The notes under the pieces were generated by a model. The model searched no databases and was not told where the DNA came from. It was given only the letters and a program-made list of their open reading frames with translations. Shown piece after piece: positions 34,204-39,206 of a stretch of 64,000 nt of DNA (the first letter of the stretch is position 1; each line of letters begins with the position of its first letter). A program made the translations under genes and the position numbers. Origin of the DNA: Escherichia phage EP75; the sequence record MG748547; one strand, given 5' to 3'.

Positions 34204-34577
34204 TTTCGTTTACTCCGATTTTTATATTTCTTAGCCTGACGTTTATGTTGGGCGGCTCCATATAGGCGCGGCGGCTTTTGATAACGTTGTGACGCAATTA
34301 TGTCTCTGTCATCGGCTTCACAATACGAAATATCTGCCTTCCGTAACTGAGCCACCGCTTGAGATACCAAGGTTTTGCGTTCACTTTCTACCAGATCATC
34401 ACAAATTATCATGCGTTCACCTGGTTCACAACGACGTTTAGGAATATCGTCTACACTGATACATTCTACTTCAACGCCTTTCAACTTTTCTTGAAGGATA
34501 AAGGCCATAGCACGAGCGCCCACCCCTCCTCCAATAATTGCAATCTTTCTTGGCTTGTCAGACATAATACATTCCAT
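34200..34577 (-). CDS. mini Rossmann-like protein (about 120 aa)
   Basis: N-terminal 'KIAIIGGGVGARAMA' dinucleotide-binding motif in an unusually short ORF. Confidence 0.4.
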   Translation of the reverse strand: MECIMSDKPRKIAIIGGGVGARAMAFILQEKLKGVEVECISVDDIPKRRCEPGERMIICDDLVESERKTLVSQAVAQLRKADISYCEADDRDIIASQRYQKPPRLYGAAQHKRQAKKYKNRSKRK

Positions 34578-34582
34578 AAAAA

Positions 34583-34612
34583 GGAGGATAGAGCAATAAT
34601 ACCCTATCCCCC
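34583..34612 (-). terminator. terminator-like hairpin
   Basis: GGAGGATAG-loop-CTATCCCCC stem with T-run on minus strand; TTCAATAAA motif directly upstream. Confidence 0.45.
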
Positions 34613-34627
34613 TTTATTGAAGAACGA

Positions 34628-35071
34628 TTAGTCTTTGGATTCTACTTTATCACCGCGCAGATCCTGGACGGGTTTGCCATCCGGCGACATGATGTAGATG
34701 GTGTTAATTGTCTCAAACCAGGATAGTTCATCAACTCCTTCAGTGTATGGAGTTACCGGAACTGAAGTTTTGATATGATCACCATCGTTATTTGGGGTGC
34801 CATCAGACTTCAGCACTGGCACCAGGAAGGCGAAACGACCATTTGGATAAATCACCCCGCCTTTAAACATCCGGATCTTCTTGCGAGGGTTGTTGGCCTC
34901 GCCAAGGCACACGACCAGATGATGGATCATCTCCGGACGGGTAAGCAACGTGTCGTCACGGATGATACCCTGTTTAATAGCGGAGATCACCACTTCGTCC
35001 AACAGCGCCTGCTGCTGGTCCAGCGTCAGTGATTCAGTAAGTTTCAGAGCCATTATTCGTACCCCAAACAT
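34628..35071 (-). CDS. hypothetical protein (about 140 aa)
   Basis: ORF in operon. Confidence 0.45.
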   Translation of the reverse strand: MFGVRIMALKLTESLTLDQQQALLDEVVISAIKQGIIRDDTLLTRPEMIHHLVVCLGEANNPRKKIRMFKGGVIYPNGRFAFLVPVLKSDGTPNNDGDHIKTSVPVTPYTEGVDELSWFETINTIYIMSPDGKPVQDLRGDKVESKD

Positions 35072-35185
35072 TTGTTTAAGAAAGTCAGGACATCGTCCAT
35101 GGTCTTGACCTCAATTTCAATGCCGAGTTGTTCCGCCAACTTGTTGGTGTTCTCGACGATCTCTTTGTCTCGCGCTGACATGATG

Positions 35186-35755
35186 TCAGCCTTTGAAGTT
35201 GATCGGTTTCTGAACCCCAGCGTCAAACGCGGCCTGGGTGCGGGTATCGCTCACCACCTGGCAGGTCTTGTCAAGATCGATGCGCGGGTAGCCAAACACA
35301 CCAGCAATCAACGAACCAGGGAACTGAGCCAGCTTGGTTTCGTACATCGCGCAGATGTCAAGCTTCTTGGTCTGACTGATACGGAACTCATCGCGGCCTG
35401 AGCTGATGACAACCTGGATCTCTTTGTACAGGCTGGAATCGAACTGAATGTTCTGTTCCTGGATCCACTGCATCACAGCCTTGGAACCATCAGCGCCATA
35501 ACGCCCTTCGAATGTACCTTTGATCACTTCCTTCAGGCCGTCTTTGTACATGTCAGGAATCTGCGCCGTCTCCTGAACTTTGAGCGTGTAGTTGCTCAGG
35601 TAGTTCTCGGAGTCTTTGTTGAACTTCTTGACCTGCTGCTCAGTGCGGTTGAAGTCGTTGAAATAACTGACGAAACTACCAACACCGATTACAACAAAAG
35701 CCAGAATCGCCAAACCGATGATCCAACCAATTGAAATACCTTTACGCTGCGACAT
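35186..35755 (-). CDS. LemA family membrane protein, putative
   Basis: 189 aa with one N-terminal transmembrane helix and LemA-like length and composition; by-eye call. Confidence 0.5.
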   Translation of the reverse strand: MSQRKGISIGWIIGLAILAFVVIGVGSFVSYFNDFNRTEQQVKKFNKDSENYLSNYTLKVQETAQIPDMYKDGLKEVIKGTFEGRYGADGSKAVMQWIQEQNIQFDSSLYKEIQVVISSGRDEFRISQTKKLDICAMYETKLAQFPGSLIAGVFGYPRIDLDKTCQVVSDTRTQAAFDAGVQKPINFKG

Positions 35756-35770
35756 CTTTACTTCCTCTTG

Positions 35771-36880
35771 TTAAAACAAACGTTTGTAAGTGCGACCATT
35801 GTACTGCATATGGCCTAATATGAAAATTGCGGTAAACGGAACACAACCTAATAAAACGACGATAATCACTTCCCATGTCTTGAGGTCACGCCATTTCAGA
35901 TACTCCATTTCCTTCATTTCAACGCGGTTATAGCCTTTGCTTATATTGACTGCAACTTCTTGGAATACTGATATCCCCATGGGTTTGCCAGTCAATGAAA
36001 GACCGTTTCGGGAATGAAGTTCCATGTTATTCATCCCATCAGCAAATGACGTGGATTTACCCCAATTGATTTTCATATCCTTCGATATGTCAGTAACCAC
36101 AATGACATCGTTCTTTTTACCACCAGACCATGCATATAGCAGCCCCTGAAAATATTCCACAGGCTGGCCAGAAGTCACTACCCACACGATATTGACCTGA
36201 CGTGATGCCCCCAATGTTTTCAAAGTGTTGTTCAGATAATCATTCCAATAATCAACGGGAATATCCATCCCTGACATATTCAAAACACGGGTTACTCGGT
36301 AATAATCATACACCCTCGGATATGACGGGATATGATCTTTGAACTTCTCAGCGAATTGCTGGTCAGATTTAGAGAATAATGAATCTTTGTTGCCCAGCAC
36401 ATAATTCATATATGAATGTTCACGTGCCGCAGGTTCCCCGATTTTAACTTGTGCCCAACGCGGAGGCTCTGTAGTACCCTGACGATCAATACGGTCAATG
36501 CTCAGATCACCGACGGTTGTTAATACGTCCCAATCAACGTCATAAGAGTGCTCATAGCACGTGCTGCAATGACGCGTTTGTGTACAAGATCGGTTATTTC
36601 CTGAACCAGAGCAAGAAGTTGTGTAATAGCACATACATTCATAAGAATGGCTACAACCCACCTTATTTCGTTGCTTGTCAGTAACGTACCCATTCAAAAT
36701 TTCAACATCTCCCGAACTACCCAGGGAAAATGCAGCGTATGCTCCCGACTGGATAAGGCAAGACAATACGATAACAATGGCCGTGGCGATCAAAGTCTCC
36801 TTTGGCTCATGAGTCTTGCGGTGATATATCACAAACAAGATGGCCAAAATTACAGGAACCACAAACAGAAGGTAAATCAT
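35771..36880 (-). CDS. Cys-rich membrane protein (N- and C-terminal transmembrane helices)
   Basis: 369 aa; transmembrane helices at both ends; 'CSHSYECMCYYTTSCSGSGNNRSCTQTRHCSTCYEH' cluster. Confidence 0.5.
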   Translation of the reverse strand: MIYLLFVVPVILAILFVIYHRKTHEPKETLIATAIVIVLSCLIQSGAYAAFSLGSSGDVEILNGYVTDKQRNKVGCSHSYECMCYYTTSCSGSGNNRSCTQTRHCSTCYEHSYDVDWDVLTTVGDLSIDRIDRQGTTEPPRWAQVKIGEPAAREHSYMNYVLGNKDSLFSKSDQQFAEKFKDHIPSYPRVYDYYRVTRVLNMSGMDIPVDYWNDYLNNTLKTLGASRQVNIVWVVTSGQPVEYFQGLLYAWSGGKKNDVIVVTDISKDMKINWGKSTSFADGMNNMELHSRNGLSLTGKPMGISVFQEVAVNISKGYNRVEMKEMEYLKWRDLKTWEVIIVVLLGCVPFTAIFILGHMQYNGRTYKRLF

Positions 36881-37684: not shown

Positions 37685-37706
37685 AAATCAATCCTTGCAA
37701 AAGAAA

Positions 37707-37736
37707 GGGGAACGGGCTAATAATAACCCATTCCCC
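37707..37736 (-). terminator. intrinsic terminator
   Basis: GGGGAACGGG-loop-CCCATTCCCC stem with TTTCTTTT on minus strand; near-identical flank to the 34583 hairpin. Confidence 0.55.
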
Positions 37737-37764
37737 TTTATTGAAGAACGCAATCGCAGTCAGA

Positions 37765-37932
37765 TTACTTTTTCTTCAGCTCTTCCAGCTTGGCTTCAAT
37801 TTGGTCCAGAATCTCTTTACCTTTCTGGACGATGGCTTCACCGTCTTGCGCGTGTTTACGAAAAACCAGAGCGCCAGCTACGAAGCCGACAACAACGCCA
37901 GGAAGCGCATACACCAACAGATCTTGTAACAT
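37765..37932 (-). CDS. small membrane protein (55 aa), not in ORF track
   Basis: ATG 37932 with GAGGAAA ribosome-binding site; MLQDLLVYALPGVVVGFVAGALVFRKHAQDGEAIVQKGKEILDQIEAKLEELKKK; plus-strand ORFs 37695..37934 and 37741..37929 are its antisense shadow. Confidence 0.45.
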   Translation of the reverse strand: MLQDLLVYALPGVVVGFVAGALVFRKHAQDGEAIVQKGKEILDQIEAKLEELKKK

Positions 37933-37970
37933 GATTTATTTCCTCACTTTTATAAGCAAGGATATTTATA

Positions 37971-39206
37971 TCATCGTTTCAACAAAGACATGAGGTTTAC
38001 ACTGGTCGACTTCGGATTGTCCTCTATATTCCGGACGGGCATTTTCAGATTAGTGTAAACCTCAGATGGTTCCCAACGCGTACCCTGCTGCAGGTGCCAT
38101 ATATGTAGAGGAACACCCGTTTCAAAGAACACAGGCATCTTCCACTTCTGGACGCCAGGAACGTGCCCTGCAGGAGCTTTTTCGCACAACAGGGTATCTG
38201 GTAGCCAGAGGGAACGGGCTTCCCATAATGCCTTACAGGAGTACTCAGGCCAGATGCGTTCCATGTAGTCGATCTCATCCCAAGTACGCTCGGCATCCCA
38301 CCCGATGTAACGGGTATTCTTCAGACGGAAGAATTTCTTAAGCCAACAAGCACCGGAGGTCTCAAAGTTCAGACGATTGATGAACGTGATGTGGCCGAAC
38401 TCTTCAACGCATTCCTGAAACGCTTTCTCAAGGTCGTTTTCGAGTATATCACATTCTTCGTCTGTAATAGGACAACCGTTGATCTTTTTCTTCCCGTGCT
38501 TGGTCACCCAATCATCACGGTTGGATAAGAACGCCGCGCCGTTACGATTGGATTCGCTACCATCACGGTCACGCAACATGAAACCAGGGACGTCTATATC
38601 CCATATGTTACCGAAGACCATGTTCAGGGCTTCCAGGAAGTTCCATGCGCTCAGGCGACCGAAGTATTTCCATGACATCGCCGTATTCCACAGTTCAGTG
38701 AACTGGTCTTCCTTGGTAGTGCATTCCAACATCCAACGAAAAGAATCCATTTGGGTTTTACCACCCAACCAATCGATATAGGACTGAACGCACGGAATCA
38801 TCTTCGACTTACGATAACGACAATCTGTATCGAAGCGCATACGATCAAAGTTCAGGTTATACCAATCAGAAAATCGCTGAAACTCTTTCGGAGATTGTGG
38901 GGGTACAGGAAATTCACTGTAAATTGTCCATGGTCCAATCCCATTATAGCAACAACCCCACAAAAAGGCCATCCAAATCTTGCGCTCGATCTTCTCGAGC
39001 TGTGTGATGCCTTCTGTAACCTCTATGGCATAATCCATCAGACGGACTTGCTGGTTATGCTCTTCAGTGTAGGATAGCGCCTCCACCCATGCCTTGAGCA
39101 GGTACATGCGATTTTCTGGCTTACGATAATCTACTGCCAGATCAATCGGGTATTTCCATTTTTCAGGGGCTTTATACCCCTGCGGCATTTTAGAAATGTG
39201 TATCAT
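37971..39206 (-). CDS. hypothetical protein (411 aa), Trp/Cys-rich
   Basis: Large conserved-looking ORF upstream of kinase/HAD genes; no motif recognised. Confidence 0.55.
   Translation of the reverse strand: MIHISKMPQGYKAPEKWKYPIDLAVDYRKPENRMYLLKAWVEALSYTEEHNQQVRLMDYAIEVTEGITQLEKIERKIWMAFLWGCCYNGIGPWTIYSEFPVPPQSPKEFQRFSDWYNLNFDRMRFDTDCRYRKSKMIPCVQSYIDWLGGKTQMDSFRWMLECTTKEDQFTELWNTAMSWKYFGRLSAWNFLEALNMVFGNIWDIDVPGFMLRDRDGSESNRNGAAFLSNRDDWVTKHGKKKINGCPITDEECDILENDLEKAFQECVEEFGHITFINRLNFETSGACWLKKFFRLKNTRYIGWDAERTWDEIDYMERIWPEYSCKALWEARSLWLPDTLLCEKAPAGHVPGVQKWKMPVFFETGVPLHIWHLQQGTRWEPSEVYTNLKMPVRNIEDNPKSTSVNLMSLLKR

Follow-up and report, generated by a model that had tools for sequence, protein, structure and literature searches.

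A phage EP75 gene pair for a LemA-like protein and a TPM-fold-like membrane protein: probably a strongly diverged phage-borne LemA-TPM module

In the 64,000-nucleotide (nt) stretch of Escherichia phage EP75 analysed here (sequence record MG748547; the whole stretch is referred to as the window), two adjacent genes, designated gene A and gene B, encode membrane proteins. Gene A (positions 35186-35755) codes for a LemA-like single-pass membrane protein of 189 amino acids (aa), and gene B (35771-36880), located 15 nt upstream of it, for a protein of 369 aa with three transmembrane (TM) segments. Both lie on the minus strand, as do all other features of the window described below, and both open reading frames (ORFs) coincide exactly with those named in an earlier reading of the DNA, hereafter the original prediction. 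Gene A is preceded by a GAGGA ribosome-binding site 8 nt 5' of its ATG, and the ATG of gene B overlaps by 4 nt with the stop codon of an upstream 128-aa gene. As 96 close homologs were found for gene A and more than 500 homologs for gene B, both are considered to be real genes. At the DNA level the region shares 97.5% identity with genomes of Salmonella Kuttervirus (Ackermannviridae) phages, among them vB_Sen_ST2 and Guerrero. A further record, OR844942.1 ('Enterococcus phage Efm 3-10', 111 kb, labelled as an E. faecium phage), contains a gene A that is 100% identical, with a DNA identity of 95.8% across the region, and looks like a mislabelled or contaminated Kuttervirus sequence.

Hydropathy analysis of the gene A protein revealed one hydrophobic segment, located at the N-terminus, which bears out the single-pass topology assumed originally. 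The corresponding TM helix comprises residues ~9-31 (35663-35731), and an N-terminal TM segment was present in all 132 family members sampled. The AlphaFold2 (AF2) model of this protein, which has two cysteines, is all-helical, with a predicted local distance difference test score (pLDDT) of 84.2; A thus displays the architecture of LemA, namely one N-terminal TM helix followed by an all-helical domain of ~150 aa. None of its 96 close homologs carries a precomputed Pfam domain. Two profiles of the gene A family were used, one of 44 sequences and one of 132, the latter taken from an exhaustive search that yielded 1431 cluster representatives at E<=0.001. The best match of the 44-sequence profile in the PDB was a solved LemA protein, 2ETD (E 0.0024), and the 132-sequence profile retrieved the same structure (2etd_A) at E 4.7e-6, with the next chain at E 0.22. 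When the relatives were scanned individually, 26 of the 132 touched Pfam LemA, weakly (best E 6.5e-6), which is more than twice the number obtained for any other family. Comparison of the gene A family with 35 bona fide PF04011 proteins by hhalign gave a probability of 97.9% and an E-value of 3.6e-13 over 153 columns, the match extending from the TM helix through the C-terminal FPG..GF motif. On the basis of hhalign and the PDB profile search, the LemA-homologous helical domain of A was assigned to residues ~32-160 (35276-35662), ending in the FPGSLIAGVFGYP motif. As judged by profile methods, the gene A family is a remote homolog of LemA, with homology detectable over the whole domain. The name LemA is already attached to gene A relatives in a few database records (Guerrero, Ecwhy_1 and one UniRef name). 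The C-terminal two-thirds of A (residues ~60-186) are also matched by the Prevotella Lak megaphages (H143 and H144) and by LR756511.1 (H145), with genomes of ~540-600 kb. For gene B, no Prevotella records occur among the genera listed, and the partner may be absent from Lak megaphages or too diverged in them.

Existing annotation would place the gene A product in the virus particle. The gene belongs to phrog_1383 of the PHROGs collection (E 1.2e-86), described there as 'virion structural protein', and the same label stands on ORF195 of LIMEstone1, on gene 69 of 121Q and on many RefSeq records. That A is a structural component of the virion is nevertheless extremely unlikely: the table of 39 proteins identified in LIMEstone1 virions by mass spectrometry includes neither ORF195 nor ORF194, A carries a TM helix at its N-terminus and has a cellular membrane protein as homolog, and the label 'major capsid protein', given to this gene in other records, is clearly an error. 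Both labels are therefore regarded as unsupported.

For gene B, which belongs to phrog_2087 (E 1.4e-166; the collection has no name for the protein), TM helices had been proposed at both ends of the protein, and these were recovered by hydropathy analysis (residues 1-23, 28-54 and 333-359) as well as in the AF2 model (pLDDT 89.1; helices 4-20, 26-54 and 335-361), two of them N-terminal and one C-terminal. The predicted protein begins with a TM hairpin (residues 4-54, 36719-36871), followed by a beta-rich domain predicted to be extracytoplasmic (residues 57-158, 36407-36712), an alpha/beta domain resembling TPM (residues ~199-330, 35891-36286) and a C-terminal TM anchor (residues 335-361, 35798-35878) with a short basic tail, predicted to be cytoplasmic. 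The domain of 20 cysteines in the original prediction was not borne out, as B has 9 cysteines in total, seven of which fall within residues 76-108, the remaining two being located in TM2 and TM3, respectively. The seven form, together with two histidines, a Cys/His cluster in the beta-rich domain (C76, H78, C82, C84, C90, C99, C105, C108 and H111; 36548-36655).

No Pfam domains were found among the more than 500 homologs of gene B. In the model, the best structural matches of residues ~200-330 were solved TPM domains, with a superposable alpha-beta-alpha sandwich, and the order of a predicted extracytoplasmic domain followed by a C-terminal TM anchor (TM3, 335-361) is that of TPM proteins. When 44 relatives of B were scanned, TPM_phosphatase was the commonest Pfam family, matching 12 of them weakly (best E 1.8e-4); these matches fall at residues ~207-263, inside the alpha/beta domain, and the two that were inspected scored 15-17 bits, versus a cut-off of 22.1. 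The gene B family profile gave no match to PDB sequences. DUF2207, which the original prediction had listed for a hidden Markov model search together with LemA and TPM, was matched neither by B at E<=1 nor among the 25 families commonest in its 44 relatives; LemA and TPM were detected weakly in relatives and not directly in the window proteins. Direct scans of A and B against Pfam, NCBIfam and PADLOC yielded nothing above threshold, and the matches of PADLOC LeoBC (E 2.9e-4, residues 9-112) and NCBIfam NF004687 (E 5e-4), which cover TM or coiled-coil-like stretches and are far below the cut-offs, were rejected. Judging from the model, B is best described as a TPM-fold protein rather than as a demonstrated member of PF04536.

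The orientation of B in the membrane was deduced from its charges. The loop between TM1 and TM2 (HRKTHEPKE, predicted to be cytoplasmic) is basic, with a family mean of 2.4 lysine plus arginine residues, as is the C-terminal tail (mean 3.6), and the beta and TPM domains are therefore predicted to lie outside the cytoplasm. For A the positive-inside rule alone was uninformative. Cys135, in the helical domain (35351-35353), and Cys165, just past the aligned LemA domain (35261-35263), were jointly present or jointly absent in 175 of 176 rows of two alignments, both of which include the window protein; this suggests that the two residues form a disulfide and that the helical domain is periplasmic. 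The published topology of LemA, in which the C-terminal domain is outside the cytoplasm (PMC3905215), agrees with such an arrangement. In B, C84 and C105 were both present in 184 sequences and both absent in 41, with only one of them in 3, for C90 and C99 the counts were 193 (both), 29 (neither) and 6 (one only), and cross-combinations of the two pairs varied independently. This pattern is the one expected of two disulfides, and points to C84/C105 and C90/C99 as the bonded pairs. C76, H78, C82, C108 and H111 are near-invariant and vary together in the few exceptions; they may constitute a metal or redox site. The predicted topology and the disulfide-type covariation of the cysteines thus uphold the envelope location proposed originally for the pair.

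The same residues could be read as catalytic. On this account B would be a periplasmic enzyme acting on an envelope substrate, either through its TPM domain, as a phosphatase or nucleotidase, or through the Cys/His cluster in metal or redox chemistry, with A as anchor or regulator. Some TPM domains do show phosphatase or ATPase/ADPase activity in vitro (PMC13456599), and the B family has invariant polar residues (GGKKND at 253-258 in the TPM-like domain, D192 and R319) beside the near-invariant, co-varying set C76/H78/C82/C108/H111. On the other hand, activity is weak or absent in several characterized TPM members, in which the domain is often an adaptor (PMC13456599, PMC11237479). We regard an enzymatic role as unlikely; it overlaps with the explanation favoured below and would be compatible with it.

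To define the linkage of the two genes, 108 loci carrying a gene B relative were compared (80 viral contigs and 28 genome contigs, forming 49 clades at 55% B identity). An A relative was located immediately downstream of B and on the same strand in 99 of them and upstream in one, so that the genes were adjacent in 100 of 108. The single locus with the LemA-like gene first, which is the bacterial order, is a 7-kb contig of a metagenome-assembled genome (MAG) labelled Rickettsia typhi (L086, 341-1992). Among the 8 loci without an adjacent A, four end right after B, and the other four (L093, L099, L105 and L106) yielded no LemA-like gene even when the LemA and family profiles were applied with relaxed thresholds; in two of these an unassigned ORF of ~215 aa takes the place of A. 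No third gene was conserved with the pair, as no flanking family was common to more than 4 of the 49 clades across the 108 loci. A and B are thus a self-contained two-gene module.

In cultured-phage records, B was found in 485 and A in 498, with almost identical counts per host genus. The phages concerned include Ackermannviridae, Aeh1-like Aeromonas phages, ICP1, ~100-kb Acinetobacter phages, Rak2/G17-type jumbo phages, T5-like phages of Vibrio, Providencia and Pectobacterium, and jumbo phages of Xanthomonas, Erwinia, Serratia and Sinorhizobium; CBA120-type phages also carry the LemA-like/TPM-like pair. Its carriers comprise myo- and T5-like phages, and their hosts belong to the gamma-, beta- and alphaproteobacteria; all genomes among the records listed are ~100 kb or larger, except for a few partial records. 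Matches in bacterial genomes were mostly MAG contigs, with two isolate loci, in Achromobacter and Variovorax. In Achromobacter anxifer (L085, 1280-5396) the pair is found beside a YqaJ-like viral recombinase gene, a RecA gene and many ORFans, suggesting that this copy resides on a large prophage or phage-like element and not on the core chromosome, while the Variovorax locus showed one weak Pfam match among 10 ORFs. Both isolate copies look phage-derived, or at least not core.

This distribution bears on superinfection exclusion, one of the two envelope functions suggested in the original prediction, by which an inner-membrane pair would, like Imm and Sp of T4, keep secondary phages from penetrating the cell wall or introducing their DNA. 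Both proteins are phage-encoded, are predicted to reside in the inner membrane with periplasm-facing domains, and their genes belong to a cluster of small non-structural ones not far from rIIA, which is situated a few kb downstream of the pair in related genomes. Exclusion proteins, however, tend to be narrow in distribution and fast-evolving, whereas the present pair has kept its invariant motifs across 49 clades, in myo- and T5-like phages and in hosts from three proteobacterial classes, and homology to a cellular module of housekeeping type offers no reason to expect exclusion. Because the pair is conserved across unrelated large phages and has no co-conserved flanking family, a phage- or host-specific exclusion device is considered improbable.

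A precedent for the pairing exists in bacteria, as the original prediction had stated in general terms. In four of six organisms sampled, namely Thermotoga (the source of 2ETD), Neobacillus, Carboxydocella and Brevibacillus, a TPM_phosphatase gene follows directly after lemA, the junctions being overlapping or nearly abutting. In the fifth, Thermincola, lemA is followed by an alignable TPM-like 263-aa gene that has no Pfam record, and in the sixth, Fervidobacterium, no TPM gene follows. In the bacterial partners a signal peptide precedes the TPM domain, and a TM helix and a Gly-rich tail follow it. In the Thermincola locus (L116, 3001-6573), the TPM-like gene is in turn followed by genes for NfeD and flotillin (FloA), which links the bacterial LemA-TPM module to membrane-microdomain proteins. 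Since the sampled bacterial lemA genes directly precede TPM genes, the phage pair A/B is, with high probability, a strongly diverged phage-borne LemA-TPM two-gene membrane module.

The pair is contained in a 3.1-kb unit that is bracketed by two copies of one terminator element. The upstream copy, marking the 5' boundary (37697-37750), consists of a CGTTCTTCAATAAAGGGG box, a 16-bp stem and a U tract, with a folding energy of -36.4 kcal/mol (z-score -6.4), and the downstream copy, marking the 3' boundary after a 147-aa gene (34573-34626), is the same element with a folding energy of -35.4 kcal/mol (z-score -6.4). Alignment of the two copies, each ~50 nt, showed that the CGTTCTTCAATAAAGGGG box at the 5' end is conserved and that the stems differ by compensatory changes. 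A motif search detected these two copies only in the 64 kb, compared with 0.08 expected, and in LIMEstone1 terminators are annotated at the equivalent places. A simple terminator scan picked up the upstream copy only. Between the two copies, the genes are arranged in the order 63-aa, 73-aa and 128-aa gene, B, A, a putative 57-aa ORF and the 147-aa gene. Matches to sigma-70-like promoters were at chance level in the window, and the sole T4-type late-promoter match (TATAAATA) in the window, at 37963-37970, is located upstream of the preceding 55-aa gene. The latter (37765-37932) codes for a predicted membrane protein and has its own terminator at the 3' side, an arrangement that is likewise annotated in LIMEstone1.

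Just upstream of these genes, a 411-aa gene (37971-39206) matches the Pfam family ADDT (amino acid:DNA transferase; E 2.5e-57), a match that the thymidine hypermodification pathway in ViI-like phages would lead one to expect; in Guerrero the same gene is annotated as aGPT pyrophosphorylase. The putative 57-aa ORF (35053-35226) has a TTG start, shares 41 nt with the 3' end of gene A and is annotated with other lengths in relatives (174 nt in AR2819, 129 nt in Guerrero). Beside the pair, Guerrero also has a 147-aa protein labelled 'rIIB lysis inhibitor', a 128-aa one labelled 'ATP dependent DNA ligase domain protein' and a 125-aa one labelled 'cytochrome c maturation protein', and a Pfam scan of the window orthologs gave no matches backing these three. 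Neighbour proteins of 125 aa and 148 aa match DUF7231 and DUF7181 in Pfam.

With rIIA among the neighbouring genes in related phages, lysis timing, the other function that had been suggested, deserves consideration: the pair would be a holin, antiholin or lysis-inhibition sensor whose periplasmic domains delay or trigger lysis. Such a role would fit an architecture of small membrane proteins, and weak matches to Phage_holin_3_2 were indeed seen in 3 of the 44 B relatives, with P0160 matching Phage_holin_3_3 at E 0.007. These holin matches are weak, though, and confined to TM helices, and identify neither a holin nor a lysis cassette; no endolysin or spanin is linked to the pair, which has no conserved flanking family (the lysis cassette of this phage was not located); and a 369-aa protein with two folded domains predicted in the periplasm is unlike known holins. 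A part in lysis timing is thus very unlikely.

What the LemA-TPM module might do for the phage can be outlined as follows. A would be a type-II inner-membrane protein with its LemA-like helical domain facing the periplasm, and B a three-TM protein with two domains exposed to the same compartment, one a TPM-fold domain and the other a beta domain rich in Cys and His and stabilized by disulfides. Made from one transcription unit, the two would assemble into a complex that is anchored in the cytoplasmic membrane of the host and works on it from the outer side. We infer this physical interaction because the LemA and TPM-fold proteins are tightly linked, anchored in the inner membrane and equipped with disulfide-bearing domains outside the cytoplasm. 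Until a large virulent phage has finished its cycle, the likely role of the complex would be to keep the membrane stable or change its shape, or else to serve as a chaperone for complexes embedded in it. A general envelope function is preferred to a phage-specific one because of the deep conservation across hosts and phage types and the restriction to large genomes.

Cellular relatives of both proteins provide the analogies on which this outline draws. MamQ is the sole LemA-family protein tied to a cellular process, the formation of the magnetosome membrane, for which it is needed (PMC4902198), and for TPM domains an accessory or chaperone-like part in membrane complexes is described, as in photosystem II repair, in the CIII-CIV supercomplex and in YdjH with PspA (PMC13456599, PMC11237479). 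Taken as a whole, a diverged LemA-TPM module forming a membrane-side complex is the explanation we favour, with a confidence only a little better than even. A role in membrane maintenance or remodelling, argued from these analogies, is put forward more tentatively, as a possibility. It would be bolder still, and rather doubtful, to regard the pair as a dedicated membrane-remodelling or -maintenance machine installed by large virulent phages, in which the LemA-like protein, located on the periplasmic side, would shape or stabilize the bilayer, a part also proposed for MamQ in magnetosome membranes, and the TPM/Cys-His protein would act as chaperone or regulator.

Several points weigh against the identification of the pair as a LemA-TPM module and against the function proposed for it. 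Neither window protein matches LemA or TPM in Pfam or NCBIfam; specifically, A has no match to Pfam LemA (PF04011) at E<=1 and does not reach the family cut-off, and B has none to TPM (PF04536) at E<=1 and does not reach the curated cut-off of 22.1 bits. Of the LemA likeness in the original prediction, the remote homology recovered by profile methods stands and a direct Pfam assignment does not. That prediction had also staked its case on a LemA profile hit, and taken literally there is none in Pfam; this standard proved too strict, as profile-profile comparison detects the homology. The TPM assignment of B draws on the predicted structure and on weak sequence matches, and comparison of the B family by hhalign with five TPM partners of bacterial LemA gave a probability of 2.4% and E 0.02, which is not significant with a template of five sequences, although the aligned stretch (215-268 versus 44-103) covers the core TPM strands. 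The gene order of the phages is reversed relative to bacteria, and B has an additional TM hairpin and a beta domain, both of which are missing from the bacterial partners. As for function, the mechanism is argued by analogy only, and the bacterial LemA-TPM module to which it appeals is itself unexplained.

No description of a phage LemA/TPM pair was found in the literature on LemA, and gene B is labelled 'hypothetical' or 'putative membrane protein' in every record examined. The pair is a variant of the known LemA-TPM pairing and not a new category, while the TPM-fold assignment, by which B gains a domain, the conservation at the level of the module and the disulfide pattern appear to be new. 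LemA proteins are found widely among bacteria, as are TPM-domain proteins, for which competing functional proposals exist (PMC13456599, PMC11237479). In phages, the pair is fixed in ~500 cultured large virulent representatives, including the genetically tractable ICP1 and CBA120-type phages, and its presence in such a number of phages with very different hosts suggests a general function at the cytoplasmic membrane. Knock-outs in phages could give the first clear phenotype for the LemA-TPM module, and if the pair should prove to be a membrane machine, phages would represent the first tractable genetic system for this widespread, unexplained bacterial module.

Among known systems, Imm and Sp of T4 and the holin/antiholin pair T/RI are comparable in that they are encoded by phages, reside in the inner membrane with parts in the periplasm, and affect the envelope of the infected cell. 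They are small and restricted to particular lineages, whereas the A/B pair is large, two-component and kept across distant phages, and library and fold searches revealed no relation in sequence or fold of A or B to Imm/Sp or to holin/antiholin proteins.

MamQ differs from A in working within a magnetosome gene set, whereas no membrane compartment is known for these phages, and the link is one of family membership only; it resembles A as a LemA-family single-pass protein whose helical domain faces a lumen equivalent to the periplasm (PMC4902198, PMC3905215) and is tied to the formation of a compartment derived from the inner membrane (PMC4902198). For B, the best structural matches to residues ~200-330 were AtTLP18.3/Psb32, BA41, cg2496, PG_0361, Rhom172_1776 and the PspA partner YdjH. 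These are accessory domains that lie outside the cytoplasm or are attached to membranes, and a helper function in the assembly or repair of membrane complexes has been proposed for them (PMC13456599, PMC11237479). Their sequence similarity to B is marginal (as seen in the best Pfam E-value of 1.8e-4), and none has the N-terminal Cys/His beta domain.

The bacterial lemA-TPM_phosphatase operons, such as that of the Thermotoga LemA protein TM0961 (2ETD), differ from the phage module in that the TPM-like gene comes first in 99 of the 100 phage loci with adjacent genes, and in that both phage proteins score below Pfam thresholds. The signal peptide of the bacterial partner is replaced in phage B by the TM hairpin and the Cys/His-rich beta domain, and the Gly-rich C-terminal tail is missing. 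In these operons, as in the phages, the gene for a single-pass LemA-type protein adjoins, across a tight or overlapping junction, a gene for a membrane-anchored TPM-fold protein, the LemA part is homologous to A, and a C-terminal TM helix comes after the TPM domain.

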